IMG/VR virus record: IMGVR_UViG_3300034064_000176
Location: 1-58,639 of that record
Source of the DNA: a virus
Lineage: Duplodnaviria; Caudoviricetes
DNA: 58,639 bases
Direction: 5' to 3' (one strand)
Part shown: positions 25,016 through 30,204 of the stretch, one piece after another
How the letters are laid out: every line of letters starts with the position of its first letter
Position numbering within the stretch: position 1 is the first letter of the stretch
The notes under the pieces: model-generated
Databases searched by the model: none
Seen by the model: the letters and a program-made list of their open reading frames with translations, nothing else
What the model was told of the DNA's origin: nothing
Program-made: the position numbers and the translations under genes

Positions 25016-25627
25016 ATGTACGCCATAGTTCAAAACGGGCAGATCCTGCAAACCATTCGTCCACACACTGCTTTTACGTTTGATGGCAGGGAATATAACG
25101 AACGCTGGACAACGCGCATGTCTGAGCAAGACAAGGCCGCATTAGGCATCATGGAAGTGGCTTACGGCCCCCGGCAAGACGAGCGGTTTTACTGGGTATC
25201 GGATAATCCCCTCACCCTGATTGATGGTGTACCGACGCAGACTTTTAGCGCCATTGAAAAGCTCCTTGAGGACCGTGCTGAGGTGGATGAGCAAGGCAAC
25301 CCATTATTCGTGCAGGTATATGACCCAACGGCCAATGAGGGCCAGGGTGGGATGGTTAACTCTGCCGACCGCCTCATCACGACAGGCTTAAAGACGCAGT
25401 GGATCGCGCAAATCAAGGCCACGGCTAACAGCATGTTATCTGCAAGCGATTGGAAGGTGGTCCGTGCTGCTGAGGGTGTTAAGCCTGTTGATCAAGCCAC
25501 GCTGGATTCCCGCGCAGCCATCAGAGCCTACAGCGATACGCTGGAAGCCAATATCAAAGCAGCCGCAACAATGGAAGCATTTATTGCCGTGGTCACCAAT
25601 CAGCAGTGGCCTGCTGGGGGTCAATAA
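25016..25627 (+). CDS. Tail fibre assembly chaperone-like protein
   Basis: C-terminal L..SDW.V.R..E..R.AIR..WP. Confidence 0.65.
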   Translation: MYAIVQNGQILQTIRPHTAFTFDGREYNERWTTRMSEQDKAALGIMEVAYGPRQDERFYWVSDNPLTLIDGVPTQTFSAIEKLLEDRAEVDEQGNPLFVQVYDPTANEGQGGMVNSADRLITTGLKTQWIAQIKATANSMLSASDWKVVRAAEGVKPVDQATLDSRAAIRAYSDTLEANIKAAATMEAFIAVVTNQQWPAGGQ

Positions 25628-27753
25628 TGGATTATCCCGGTGGCTTCATTACCAAGACAGCACCCACACTGAACCCTGCGCTGGGTAACGCTGCGCCGGG
25701 AGTCTGGCGGCTTAATGACGTACTGAAAAACATCAAGGCCGGGACATGGCCTTCGTACGATCCGTACTTTGAGAACACCACGCTCTTGCTGCACGGCAAC
25801 GGCACCAACGGTGGTCAAAACAATACCTTCCTTGATTCAGGAACGGCTAACAGCGGCTCAGGCTTCACCATCACAAGGAATGGCAATACGACCCAAGGAA
25901 CCTTCAGCCCATTCAGCCAGACGGGGTGGAGTAATTATTTTGGAAGCGGTGGTGCGTCGTATTTGATTGCTAACGCCACCGATACGTCAAAGTTTGCGTT
26001 TGGTACAGGTGATTTCACCATTGAGTTTTGGGTGTATGCAGAGGCTTTAACTGCACCGGATGGACTTGTTACTTTTTATGATCAACGTGCTGCATCGACG
26101 GATGGAGTCTGTCCGACCATTTACTATTATTCAGGCCAATTGCTGGTATATGTTCAGGCGACCAATGTAATTTATGGCAGTTCACTATCCTTAAACCAAT
26201 GGACGCACATTGCACTAAGCCGTGTTTCAGGTAATTCGCGCCTGTTCGTCAACGGGGTTCAAACAGGATCAACGTATTCCGACTCAAACAATTACGTTGC
26301 TCCTTCCAGCAACATTCGAATATTTGCCAACTGCTACGGCGGTTCAAGGTCACCCACTGGATATTGCTCAAATTTTCGTGTTGTTAAAGGCACGGGGCTT
26401 TACTCTGCAAACTTCACGCCACCAACTTCGCCACTGACTGCTATAACCAACACGCAGTTGTTAACCTGTCAGTCAAACCGTTTCGTTGATAACAGCAGCA
26501 ACGCGCTGACGGTTACTCCGTATAACACTTATTCCGTCCAAGCCTTCTCACCGTTTGCACCCACGGCTGTGTACAGCGCATCAACGGTCGGTGGATCTGG
26601 GTACTTTGATGGGACAGGGGATAATTTATCAATCGCCAATAACGCTGCGTTTCAGTTTGGAAGTGGAGATTTCACTGTTGAAGCGTGGGTCTACGCACCA
26701 TCGAACCCTCCCAATATAGGGTCTATTGTTTCTCACTCGGACGGGGCAAGTGCATCCGGAACGCAGTTTTTGGTCAGAACTGAAGGAAGCAACACATCCG
26801 TAGTAGCCGCTGTGTATTCTGGCGGCACGGCTTACGTTGCAACATGGTCATCTGCGTTACCAATTGGTCAGTGGAACCACGTTGCGTTCACCAGATCAGG
26901 AACATCTACTTATCTGTGGGTCAACGGAGTGCAACGTGCCACGGCTAGTGTCGGCAGCGTATCCCTGAATACAACATCAACAGCCCTTACAATTGGCTCA
27001 AACGCAAGCGCGTCTGCTGATAACTGGCTTGGTTATATTTCTGGTACTCGTATAACAAAAGGTGCGGCGCTTTATACTGCTACGTTTACGCCGCCTACCG
27101 CGCCACCAACAACCACTGTATCTAGCGGAACTGTAGGCTTGCTATTGAATTACACCAACGCAGCCATCATCGACAACACCGCCAAAAACGTATTGGAAAC
27201 GGTGGGTAACGCGCAGATCAGTACCAGCGTCAGTAAGTTTGGTGGGGGGTCGATGGCGTTTGATGGGAGCGGGGATTATTTGGTGTCGGCGGCAGGGAAC
27301 ACTTATATCTCAGGAACAGAAAACTTTACTATTGAAGGATGGTTGAATTTAAACAGCATTTCATCCACTCAAACTATTGTTTCTGGTAATACGTCAAATT
27401 CATTGTTTTTGCGATATGGGCAAGGCTATACCGTTACTCAAGGGTTGAACATAGGTCGGCAATCGGTTGCGGACTGCGAGTATTGCGCCTTTACGTTTGC
27501 TACCGGAACTTGGTATCACATTGCGGTTTGCAGATCCAACGGCGTTATTTACTTTTTTGTAAACGGCACTCAGCAAACAACACAAGGTTCTGGTGCAGCT
27601 TCTTATTCGTTTCCAGTTACAACTACGTATAACGTCGGTTTTTATGGTGTTGAGCCGCTTAACGGCTACATCGACGACTTCCGCATCACTAAAGGCATTG
27701 CCCGATACACCAGCAACTTCACGCCACAAACATCTCAATGGCAGGATCAATGA
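25627..27753 (+). CDS. Receptor-binding protein with three LamG/ConA-like domains
   Basis: LLLHGNG; three repeats of FT.E.W..W.H.A..R..NG; GYIDDFRITKG; start at coupled TAATG. Confidence 0.82.
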   Translation: MDYPGGFITKTAPTLNPALGNAAPGVWRLNDVLKNIKAGTWPSYDPYFENTTLLLHGNGTNGGQNNTFLDSGTANSGSGFTITRNGNTTQGTFSPFSQTGWSNYFGSGGASYLIANATDTSKFAFGTGDFTIEFWVYAEALTAPDGLVTFYDQRAASTDGVCPTIYYYSGQLLVYVQATNVIYGSSLSLNQWTHIALSRVSGNSRLFVNGVQTGSTYSDSNNYVAPSSNIRIFANCYGGSRSPTGYCSNFRVVKGTGLYSANFTPPTSPLTAITNTQLLTCQSNRFVDNSSNALTVTPYNTYSVQAFSPFAPTAVYSASTVGGSGYFDGTGDNLSIANNAAFQFGSGDFTVEAWVYAPSNPPNIGSIVSHSDGASASGTQFLVRTEGSNTSVVAAVYSGGTAYVATWSSALPIGQWNHVAFTRSGTSTYLWVNGVQRATASVGSVSLNTTSTALTIGSNASASADNWLGYISGTRITKGAALYTATFTPPTAPPTTTVSSGTVGLLLNYTNAAIIDNTAKNVLETVGNAQISTSVSKFGGGSMAFDGSGDYLVSAAGNTYISGTENFTIEGWLNLNSISSTQTIVSGNTSNSLFLRYGQGYTVTQGLNIGRQSVADCEYCAFTFATGTWYHIAVCRSNGVIYFFVNGTQQTTQGSGAASYSFPVTTTYNVGFYGVEPLNGYIDDFRITKGIARYTSNFTPQTSQWQDQ

Positions 27754-27894
27754 TGACCGTCTTTCCGATCTGTCAGCGGGGCAAGATGTGTGCTGGACCT
27801 GATCCGTTGCACACCCACGGCCTAAAAACCCTCAACGAGAAGGTGCTTAGGCTGGATCAGGCAGGCTTCCAGTTATTCCCCCGCACGGGAAACT

Positions 27895-27940
27895 CCACGG
27901 GACGCAAAAGCGTTTCGTCACAATGACTCATCAGCCGTGG
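27895..27940 (-). ncRNA. Hammerhead ribozyme (type I, stem I open)
   Basis: Minus strand reads CCACGG CUGAUGA GUCA-UUG-UGAC GAAA CGC-UUUU-GCG UC CCGUGG: complete core and three stems; predicted cut between 27901 and 27900. Confidence 0.9.
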
Positions 27941-27968
27941 TAGAAAAGTATAACGCAACAAGGAATCA

Positions 27969-28286
27969 ATGATGCTTTACTCCAAAAACGGATCAATACC
28001 CAAACCGCAAACGGATGGCACGGATGGTTGGATTGAAGTGCCTGAGCCACCCACGGCAGCAGACGGTCAGGAAGTTGTTTGGTGGTTTCCACCGGGATGG
28101 GTTGTCCGTCCTGTAAAGCCTGCGGATGAGGCTGGCTTTGTGTGGAACTGGTCTCAATCCAATGAGGCGTGGATCAAGTCTGAAGCGCCCGACCAAACTG
28201 TTGAACCCCTGCAAACCATTACGCTTGACGCTGCTACAGCGGGGATTGTATTAAGCAGCTTTACCGCTGGCGAAACGATTATTTAG
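27969..28286 (+). CDS. Trp/Pro-rich tail accessory protein
   Basis: AAGGA SD; W.EVP.PP..VVWW..W.W.Q..W. Confidence 0.65.
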   Translation: MMLYSKNGSIPKPQTDGTDGWIEVPEPPTAADGQEVVWWFPPGWVVRPVKPADEAGFVWNWSQSNEAWIKSEAPDQTVEPLQTITLDAATAGIVLSSFTAGETII

Positions 28287-28294
28287 GAGGCTTT

Positions 28295-28456
28295 ATGACC
28301 CTTAACCTACCCATTGACCTTGCCAATCAGATCATTGGCTACCTGGGCACCCGTCCGTACCAAGAAGTGTATCAACTGATTGACGGTATGAAAGAAGCCG
28401 CAAAGCCGCCGGTTACGGGTTTGCATGAGGTTCCACGGGAGCAAGAGGCTGCGTGA
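28295..28456 (+). CDS. Small hypothetical protein (MTLNLPIDLANQIIGYLGTRPYQEV..), 53 aa; not in the ORF track
   Basis: AGGAGG SD; stop overlaps the next start. Confidence 0.8.
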   Translation: MTLNLPIDLANQIIGYLGTRPYQEVYQLIDGMKEAAKPPVTGLHEVPREQEAA

Positions 28457-29561: not shown

Positions 29562-29744
29562 GTGGAAGCCTTGATCGATTCCCTCGCAAGGGTTTGGTTC
29601 TTGGGGGTTGCGCTTGTTGGCGTGGCCGTTTATGCCGTGACCATTAAGACTCGGCTTGATTACCTTGAGAAGGACCACGACAGGCAAATCCACGCGCTTT
29701 GGGAACATGTCAACCGATTGATCAAAGAGAAGTCCAGTGAATGA
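29562..29744 (+). CDS. Small single-TM protein
   Basis: TM followed by coiled coil; GTG start. Confidence 0.55.
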   Translation: MEALIDSLARVWFLGVALVGVAVYAVTIKTRLDYLEKDHDRQIHALWEHVNRLIKEKSSE

Positions 29745-30204
29745 GGCTAAGAAGCTTTGCAAGGATGTACTGATCAAGCCCTTTGAAGGGCTGGCAAAGC
29801 GTTTGCCTGATGGCCGTGTAACAGCCTATCCCGACCCTGGGACTCGTGGCCATCCTTGGACCATAGGATGGGGTGCTACGGGCCCAGAAATCAATCCTGG
29901 GACCATCTGGACGATCGAGCAGTGCGAGGACGCCCTAGACCACCACGTCGAATATTTCGTGCGGGGTTTGCTCAAGATGTCGCCCAGCCTGTCAAAAGCG
30001 ATCCCAAGGCGCATGGCAGCGGTTACAAGCTGGGCCTATAACTGCGGCCTTGGTAACTACAGGGTGAGCACCTTCAAAAAGCGCATCGACGCCGATAACT
30101 GGGATGGTGCCGCGGATGAGTGCCTGAAATGGAATAAAGCCGCTGGCAGGGTTTTGCCAGGACTAACCCGTAGGAGGGCGGCCGAGGCCGCGTTAATGCG
30201 ATGA
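29737..30204 (+). CDS. Endolysin, GH24 phage lysozyme
   Basis: FEG..AYPDP..WTIGWG..YN.G..W.KA.G.VLPGL.RRR.AE. Confidence 0.93.
   Translation: MNEAKKLCKDVLIKPFEGLAKRLPDGRVTAYPDPGTRGHPWTIGWGATGPEINPGTIWTIEQCEDALDHHVEYFVRGLLKMSPSLSKAIPRRMAAVTSWAYNCGLGNYRVSTFKKRIDADNWDGAADECLKWNKAAGRVLPGLTRRRAAEAALMR

Follow-up and report, generated by a model that had tools for sequence, protein, structure and literature searches.

Hammerhead ribozymes are common in phages, and their purpose has been an open question since 2011. Here the question is what such a ribozyme does between two late genes of a phage genome of 58,639 nucleotides (the whole stretch analysed, referred to below as the window). An initial annotation had described at this place a complete hammerhead with all core nucleotides and three stems, lying antisense to the late operon, and had suggested that transcription from a minus-strand TATACT box with a poor –35 element would let the ribozyme trim the 5′ end of a dedicated small RNA. 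We find a hammerhead that belongs to a larger structured RNA, carried by phages of very different hosts in two different gene orders, and we propose that the ribozyme serves to process that RNA.

A complete hammerhead on the minus strand

We confirm that minus-strand positions 27940–27895 of the window are a complete hammerhead ribozyme of type I topology; its parts are listed in Table 1 together with the other features of the locus. The minimum-free-energy fold calculated with ViennaRNA is exactly the three-way hammerhead junction. The cleavage position follows from the hammerhead consensus, in which the chain is broken 3′ of C17; since C17 is position 27901, the predicted cut falls between 27901 and 27900. 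Self-cleavage after C27901 is what the canonical core and the strong covariation described below would lead one to expect. By eye, neither a tertiary contact between stem I and loop II nor a stem I/loop II pseudoknot was recognised in the window copy, so the ribozyme may be slow at physiological Mg2+.

Table 1. Features of the locus, with window coordinates and the basis on which each was assigned
Feature	Position	Strand	Basis or remark
Upstream gene, tail-fibre or baseplate-like structural protein	25606–27753	+	PHROG matches
Downstream gene, 105 aa	27969–28286	+	no family match; 69 related loci
Endolysin gene	29737–30204		lies beyond the 105-aa gene
Inserted cassette, 219 bp	27746–27964		boundaries slide by up to 10 nt owing to the flanking repeat
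Left direct repeat	27743–27755	+	spans the stop codon of the tail-fibre-like gene
Right direct repeat	27961–27974	+	includes the 105-aa gene's ribosome-binding site and start
TATACT, –10-like box, candidate promoter	27952–27947	–	inside the insert, 6 nt upstream of stem I
Stem I	CCACGG 27940–27935 with CCGUGG 27900–27895	–	sequence reading
Core CUGAUGA (C3-U4-G5-A6-N7-G8-A9)	27934–27928	–	all core positions present
Stem II, GUCA/UGAC, four pairs, UUG loop	27927–27917	–	sequence reading
GAAA (G12-A13-A14 and A15.1)	27916–27913	–	sequence reading
Stem III, A-CGC/GCG-U (A15.1-U16.1 and three G-C pairs), UUUU loop	27913–27902	–	sequence reading
U16.1	27902	–	pairs with A15.1
Predicted cleavage site, 3′ of C17 (C27901)	27901/27900	–	position from hammerhead consensus
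Conserved double-pseudoknot RNA, predicted released 3′ product, ~130 nt	27900–27771	–	alignments and pair counts
29-nt block of highest conservation, search pattern for the family	27868–27896	–	alignment
Helix b	27893–27888 with 27870–27865	–	loop holds one strand of helix a
Helix a, long-range	27884–27879 with 27781–27776	–	crosses helix b, forming the first pseudoknot
Second pseudoknot	27862–27854 with 27805–27797 (in the hairpin C loop)	–	duplex energy
Hairpin E	27821–27851	–	joins the two ends that the RNA has in the permuted (class II) order
Hairpin C	27788–27814	–	pair counts
GAAAGA-loop hairpin	27755–27770	–	directly 3′ of the RNA; also in the predicted fold

The energy of the hammerhead fold is unremarkable (z = –1.26, with 26 of 200 shuffled sequences folding equally well), as is that of the RNA predicted to be released downstream of it (z = –1.37). 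Neither z-score is significant, so thermodynamics alone is uninformative here. We therefore note the frequency of the motif itself: a loose hammerhead descriptor of our own, with stems of at least 4, 3 and 3 pairs and scanned over both strands, found one site in the window, the one at 27940–27895, as against two sites in total in 300 dinucleotide shuffles.

The Rfam search that the initial annotation had named as a check did not call the motif. In E-value mode the best match in the window was Hammerhead_3 (RF00008; E = 0.054), but its 21.1 bits fall below the cut-off of 48.5. At the gathering score, which is a curated threshold and not a biochemical criterion, no Rfam model matched the window, the hammerhead models included. 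A hammerhead cluster that scores below all six Rfam cut-offs has also been reported in a preprint (bioRxiv 10.64898/2026.10.21.760802).

Relatives of the locus in phages, viral contigs and MAGs

The window phage has no close relative among cultured phages, since 20 kb of the window gave no megablast match to them. A blastn search of cultured phages with positions 27600–28300 returned Enterobacter phage SDFMU_EhYP, Pectobacterium phages Pappous and Taid and Dickeya phage Setonix, all with 69–71% identity over 27776–27937 and with compensatory changes in the hammerhead. A second blastn search added six further phage records, among them Arthrobacter phages Constance and Karkharias and Mycobacterium phage Gaia. 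When the matches of the first search were aligned, conservation was unexpectedly found to run ~130 nt past the cleavage site and to be stronger there than in the hammerhead.

The conserved region was used to retrieve the family at large. An exact 14-mer taken from it gave 117 viral-contig loci, 29 of them true relatives by nhmmer and the rest chance matches; a pattern of 29 positions gave 70 viral contigs and 7 contigs from metagenome-assembled genomes (MAGs), the titles of which name Lysobacter, an actinobacterium, Rhodobacteraceae, Enterenecus, Sulfitobacter, Agriterribacter and Patescibacteria. Because retrieval required an exact conserved block, the invariance of that 29-nt block among the copies is partly circular; more divergent members will have been missed in this way, and the family may be more diverse than the sample.

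Conservation and covariation of the hammerhead

Distinct sequences comprising hammerhead and conserved block numbered 54, a locus with an altered core (L031) having been removed before this count. We aligned 51 of them, omitting three with very long stem III inserts (L020, L080 and L198). In the alignment 90.0% of cells are paired in the hammerhead structure given in Table 1, compared with 27–45% when the partners are slid, and the covariation score is 0.496, compared with at most 0.092 for the slid versions. None of 500 shuffles reached the observed percentage paired, the number of cells changed on both sides or the covariation score. The other two measures were matched by shuffles, in 91 of 500 cases for pairs changed on both sides and in 452 of 500 for further pair types. 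Double changes affect two pairs of stem I, all four of stem II and three of the four of stem III.

Of 66 distinct family loci, 63 have a CUGANGA core where it is expected. The 51 aligned sequences had been picked by this motif, and constancy of those positions is by selection of the sample. At positions that were not used for picking, A13, A14 and U16.1 are present in all 51 sequences and G12 and A15.1 in 50 of the 51. H17, the nucleotide at the cut, is C in 30 relatives, A in 19, U in two and never G. At 10.1/11.1, 29 sequences have G-C, 11 have A.A and 7 have U.U, so that A.A or U.U replaces the usual G-C in 18 of the 51. Conservation and covariation in 51 relatives settle the question of whether the hammerhead is real; the annotated complete motif, with all core nucleotides and three stems, is borne out by the sequence, by the descriptor count and by this alignment.

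In one family member (L031/L128) two core positions differ jointly, position 3 (C to U) and position 8 (G to A), and a canonical 15.1–16.1 pair is lacking as well. This hammerhead either has decayed or is of an unusual kind.

Two gene orders of one RNA with two pseudoknots

Altogether we collected 67 distinct copies of the element from viral contigs, MAGs and cultured phages: 25 of class I (the window included), 40 of class II and two without a hammerhead. Three loci with no 5′ motif were dropped from this classification, two as chance matches (L029 and L092) and one that is probably a real variant (L183). The order in class I is hammerhead, conserved block, pseudoknot strand, hairpin E, CGUGGG, hairpin C and CAUCU-N-GCCC-NN. 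In class II it is CGUGGG, hairpin C, CAUCU-N-GCCC-NN, hammerhead, conserved block and pseudoknot strand; here the hammerhead sits inside a loop of the RNA and its stem I is a helix of the host RNA. As the same helices are found in both gene orders, class II is a circular permutation of class I, and the two orders are circular permutations of one RNA.

The helices of this RNA are backed by pair counts in both classes. Those for class II are based on 36 of the 40 copies, three with long inserts and L031 being excluded; over these 36 the structure is 99.5% paired, with a covariation score of 0.505 as against at most 0.081 when slid. Helix b pairs in 100% of cells of the 51 aligned sequences, with four pair types at its middle pair, and likewise in 100% on the 36 class II copies. 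For helix a, which closes the first pseudoknot, the figures are 96.7% with compensatory changes in the 25 class I copies and 99.1% in class II (n = 36). Hairpin C is paired in 100% (25 class I) and 99.5% (class II, n = 36) of cells, and hairpin E in 94.8%, with double changes at 7 of its 10 pairs (25 class I). The register of the second pseudoknot shifts between members, and it was therefore tested by duplex energy. With its own partner the strand forms a duplex of –16.6 kcal/mol in the window and of –13.9 kcal/mol on average in the family, and with foreign partners taken from other sequences of roughly –7 kcal/mol; in 38 of 56 sequences at most two of 55 foreign partners do as well.

Overall, the RNA is more conserved than the stems of the ribozyme. 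Judged by these patterns of substitution, both the hammerhead and the RNA fold are under selection. CGUGGG and CAUCU-GCCC, which lie outside the retrieval pattern, are invariant single-stranded segments. Two further pairings were considered, one between CGUGGG and the CCC-N-N-G segment and one between CAUCU-N-G and the linker that follows helix b; by eye, neither shows consistent covariation.

The hammerhead is absent from L104 and L197, where the loop is closed by 3–5 nt and the rest of the conserved RNA is kept (this is also seen in L143). Together with the altered core of L031, these copies indicate that a break in the RNA is not strictly required. Among the class II copies that have a hammerhead, eight share the loop II sequence CUGNNAUG, which may make a tertiary contact.

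A GAAAGA loop, as in the hairpin that follows the RNA in the window, is present on differing but still-pairing stems in 7 of the 67 copies, from four lineages (e.g. L163, L172 and L013), and the hairpin may be a 3′-end or processing signal. In L172 a GAAAGA-loop hairpin stands on both sides of the RNA, as a 21-nt direct repeat. Six copies (L002, which is Enterobacter phage SDFMU_EhYP, and L023, L052, L073, L113 and L187) have complementary flanks of ~18 nt, one just upstream of the hammerhead and the other just downstream of the RNA, that could form a long closing helix; in these T7-like phages this helix might be a processing site.

Searches for a known counterpart of the RNA were negative. 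Against Rfam 15 the window RNA gave chance-level matches only (E ≥ 3.2), and 20 family loci covering both gene orders gave only tRNAs, weak hammerheads and two weak sRNA matches, both in L106 and far under their cut-offs. A weak match to CRISPR-DR58, which led us to consider a CRISPR repeat mimic, was at chance level (15.7 bits against 38, E = 3.4), as was a weak snoRNA match. A local CRISPR-repeat hairpin was rejected because, by covariation, the partner of the G-run is a distant C-run rather than the neighbouring one; likenesses to a type I-E CRISPR repeat and to 5S rRNA helix IV were dropped as covariation gives another pairing scheme or helix order. The helix order does not fit HDV-like or twister folds either. 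No description of the RNA was found in the accessible parts of the literature covered (PMC3088659, PMC10085705, PMC5737381 and bioRxiv 10.64898/2026.10.21.760802); the supplements of Perreault 2011 and Weinberg 2017 could list members.

A 219-bp insert at a gene junction

The space between the two late genes had been taken for a plain gap in the operon. Comparison with related loci leads to a different picture. Relatives of the 105-aa protein are encoded at 69 loci, of which we examined 67, leaving out two that start at the locus edge. The element was detected by nhmmer in seven of the 67, and one more, truncated locus shows the hammerhead. In 17 the junction is uninterrupted, the upstream stop codon overlapping the downstream start; these include relatives that are 90–92% identical. 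The remaining loci have other junctions and no element. Thus what looks like intergenic space is a 219-bp insertion, whose presence or absence varies among 85–95% identical relatives, and on this comparison the unit is a cassette that a single sublineage acquired recently.

The empty site was also met in an RNA run (X20), in which a contig of 213 nt joins 27745 to 27965 and skips 219 nt, with an ambiguity of 10 nt. RNA splicing and template switching of reverse transcriptase at the repeat were considered as explanations of this joint; it is read as the empty site because 17 DNA contigs have the same junction.

In the window the direct repeat that flanks the insert amounts to 10 exact bases or, by eye, to 13 of 14 with one indel. 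Across the family, 13 of the 67 copies are bordered by direct repeats of at least 10 nt, compared with 4 of 600 mismatched controls. Their length ranges from 10 to 21 nt, and several of them are the carrier phage's own recurring intergenic hairpins. The variability of the repeats and the use of the phage's own hairpins speak for recombination at gene boundaries rather than for a transposase. Phage morons are independent gene cassettes inserted between late genes, and insertion at one precise junction, present or absent in close relatives, is a moron-like pattern.

At four loci (L097, L066, L161 and L170) a recurring intergenic hairpin of ~20 nt stands on both sides of the element and resembles a boundary or regulatory repeat of the phage itself. 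In the window, a plus-strand ORF of 62 aa (27738–27926) overlaps the element, starts in the left copy of the duplicated junction and has no PHROG match; it exists only because of the insertion and is probably spurious.

Orientation, neighbouring genes and expression

All genes of the window from position 85 to ~42372 are on the plus strand, the two flanking genes among them, so that the minus-strand hammerhead is antisense to the late operon, as annotated. This placement is real in the window but atypical for the family. In all five annotated cultured phages examined the element is co-oriented with its neighbours (the Setonix record carries no annotation). In EhYP it lies between a small post-capsid gene and the gene for tail tubular protein A, in Pappous directly before tRNA-Met, in Constance near the right genome end and in Gaia inside a tRNA cluster. 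Crude ORF maps of five larger contexts gave three co-oriented cases, one mixed and one apparently antisense; ORFs in flanks of 400 nt were uninformative on the orientation of neighbours and were left out of the evidence.

A tRNA gene is present within ~400 nt of the element at 14 of 72 family loci and at none of 88 control loci, the latter being the chance 14-mer matches. All 32 tRNAs found near family loci are on the strand of the element. In the window no tRNA was predicted, and neither a conserved protein neighbour nor a target was found among the family contexts examined.

The TATACT box of the proposed promoter is where the annotation had placed it, but a sigma-70 promoter scan finds no site at 27952; that its –35 would be poor agrees with our finding no good one. 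TATACT is conserved in close relatives only, and by eye many class II copies have a TATAAT-like box just before the start of the RNA. A scan for promoters and terminators gave nothing at the element, and there is no U-tract terminator, only the GAAAGA-loop hairpin. The suggested trimming of the 5′ end of a dedicated small RNA agrees in part with the sequences: in the window the ribozyme does head a conserved, covarying RNA of ~130 nt, but most family members would be nicked internally, with no end trimmed.

Contigs from RNA libraries cover the element in three runs from two studies (X16, 27704–28092; X15, 27837–28038; X17, 27781–27931). They bridge the cleavage site and, being strandless, could stem from plus-strand late mRNA or from DNA; we do not take them as a sign of minus-strand transcription. 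Uncovered parts and runs with small shares of sampled words were disregarded in this survey. An A-to-G difference at 28004 is common to the RNA-library contigs of three runs, both with and without the insert, and suggests co-existing strains that differ by the cassette.

Proposed mechanism and alternative explanations

We propose that the 219-bp insert, reversed relative to the late genes on either side, is a small-RNA gene complete in itself, whose product is cut by the hammerhead and acts in trans through its fold; we put the probability of this whole proposal at about 0.65. The minus strand would be transcribed, probably from the weak TATACT promoter of the insert itself. The first 46 nt of the transcript would fold as the hammerhead and, to judge from core and covariation, cut after C27901. 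A ribozyme leader of ~40 nt would be discarded, and an RNA of ~130–146 nt that starts at 27900 with a 5′-hydroxyl end would be released and fold into the compact double pseudoknot that covariation supports. Most relatives encode the same RNA in a circularly permuted order, with the hammerhead placed in one particular loop, and the mature molecule would be opened at the same spot in both layouts. Since both architectures would open the RNA at the same loop, the role of the hammerhead seems to be the making of the break or of the 5′-OH end, and not the punctuation of an mRNA. Most likely the RNA works in trans, by way of its fold, on a target that many bacteria share. Our guess for this target is tRNA or the translation machinery, since one copy in five lies in a phage tRNA cluster.

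A stronger version, put forward tentatively and with the odds clearly against it, is that the core of ~105 nt with its two pseudoknots represents an undescribed class of phage RNA that has a biochemical job of its own, passes between phages of Proteobacteria, Actinobacteria, Firmicutes, Bacteroidota and Patescibacteria through the exchange of gene cassettes, and must be opened at one loop, which would have been reached both by a planted hammerhead and by circular permutation. If true, it would be a natural two-piece, 5′-OH-ended RNA, and might serve as a decoy, as a sponge for a universally conserved host component or a signalling nucleotide, or as a ribozyme of a new kind.

Hammerhead and RNA could instead be a selfish mobile cassette, retrozyme- or intron-like, which serves its own spread and does nothing for the phage. 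Its presence or absence in close relatives, the flanking direct repeats and their excess over controls, the unrelated genome positions in either orientation and the near-identical core in phages of distant hosts would all be expected of such a unit. Yet no reverse transcriptase, transposase or homing endonuclease is consistently adjacent in the annotated cultured phages examined, repeats of 10–21 nt that include the phage's own hairpins fit moron-like recombination at boundaries better than transposition, and a functional RNA gene would typically share the orientation of tRNA clusters, as is seen here. We consider this explanation unlikely.

Quite unlikely, too, is a second catalytic or ligand-sensing function of the folded RNA itself, as either a new self-cleaving class or an aptamer that controls the hammerhead, the whole being a composite ribozyme or switch. 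The compact double pseudoknot with invariant single-stranded CGUGGG and CAUCU-GCCC outside the retrieval pattern would suit such an RNA, and so would the use of a host-RNA helix as stem I of the class II hammerhead. Small ribozymes tolerate circular permutation, as this RNA does. Self-cleaving ribozymes are moreover known to cluster near one another (PMC10085705). Against this stand the lack of any match to a ribozyme or riboswitch of Rfam 15 in either gene order, a helix order unlike that of the HDV-like and twister folds, and the fact that no second cleavage site can be inferred.

As an antisense regulator, the minus-strand RNA would pair with the late mRNA and change its processing or translation. 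It is perfectly complementary to the plus-strand transcript over 27755–27940, beside the ribosome-binding site and start of the 105-aa gene. We hold such a role to be very unlikely, given that the element is co-oriented with its neighbours in five of five annotated cultured phages and three of five larger contexts, that selection acts on the helices of the RNA itself, and that the complementary target exists only through insertion of the cassette.

Cutting of long transcripts into gene-length pieces has been proposed for clustered prophage hammerheads (Perreault et al. 2011, PMC3088659), and in T7-like carriers such as SDFMU_EhYP the unit does lie on the sense strand between structural genes. 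In the window, however, the ribozyme lies on the strand opposite to the late mRNA and could not cut it, and across the family it lies inside the conserved RNA in 40 of 67 copies, an RNA more conserved than the ribozyme stems, which makes mRNA punctuation highly improbable. Finally, a chance or decayed, inactive hammerhead-like motif, for which the score under the Rfam threshold and the unremarkable fold energy might speak, is strongly disfavoured by covariation in all stems, an H17 that is never G and only two descriptor sites per 300 shuffles.

Relation to known systems and significance

Processing of a small RNA by its own hammerhead, as we propose it, has partial parallels in several systems. 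The type I hammerheads of phages and prophages (Rfam clan CL00010; PMC3088659) share the core, the three-stem junction, the H17 rule and the phage setting. The present one differs from the CL00010 hammerheads in scoring 21.1 bits against 48.5 and in having no recognised stem I/loop II pseudoknot or loop–loop contact. It differs from the phage and prophage examples also in that it is embedded in, or permuted around, a larger conserved RNA instead of flanking genes.

In permuted tmRNA the mature molecule is interrupted at a constant position, and its pieces stay together through base pairing; the break is made by host RNases. With this RNA, which the introduction of PMC10085705 mentions, our family shares the use of two gene orders for one RNA fold. 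Here the break would be made by a built-in ribozyme, there is no tRNA-like T-arm, and ARAGORN found no tmRNA in the window or in the 19 family loci tested.

RAGATH motifs are reportedly conserved RNAs next to hammerhead and twister ribozymes, as set out by Weinberg et al. in 2015. One of them, RAGATH-18, was later reported to be the guide RNA of an IS607 TnpB (PMC11061315). Common to these motifs and to our RNA is an unexplained structured RNA for which association with a self-cleaving ribozyme in mobile or phage DNA is the clearest clue. Our RNA differs in having no Rfam 15 match and no TnpB-like or constant protein neighbour, and in that its ribozyme lies inside the RNA rather than nearby.

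Species 1 and 2 of phage T4 (rnaC/rnaD) are small stable non-tRNA RNAs that are co-transcribed with the phage tRNAs and whose function is unknown. They resemble the present family as non-tRNA small RNAs in phage tRNA clusters. To our knowledge they do not carry ribozymes, and blastn of phage records with our sequence gave no T4 match. Like morons, the insert is present in some close relatives and absent from others and sits precisely at a gene junction; it may also have a promoter of its own. It departs from them in its cargo, an RNA predicted to be processed by a ribozyme with no protein gene, and in the lack of a U-tract terminator.

To the long-standing question of what phage hammerheads are for, this family suggests a concrete reply for one case, namely that the ribozyme would be built into a conserved structured RNA as its processing module. 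That two independent gene architectures arrive at a break in the same place yields a testable hypothesis: what matters is the break or the 5′-OH end. Experiments are eased by the cultured carriers, SDFMU_EhYP, Pappous, Taid, Setonix, Constance, Karkharias and Gaia. The copies described here define an RNA family that is missing from Rfam 15, and they provide clean natural examples of a circularly permuted non-coding RNA and of the movement of an RNA-only cassette between phages.
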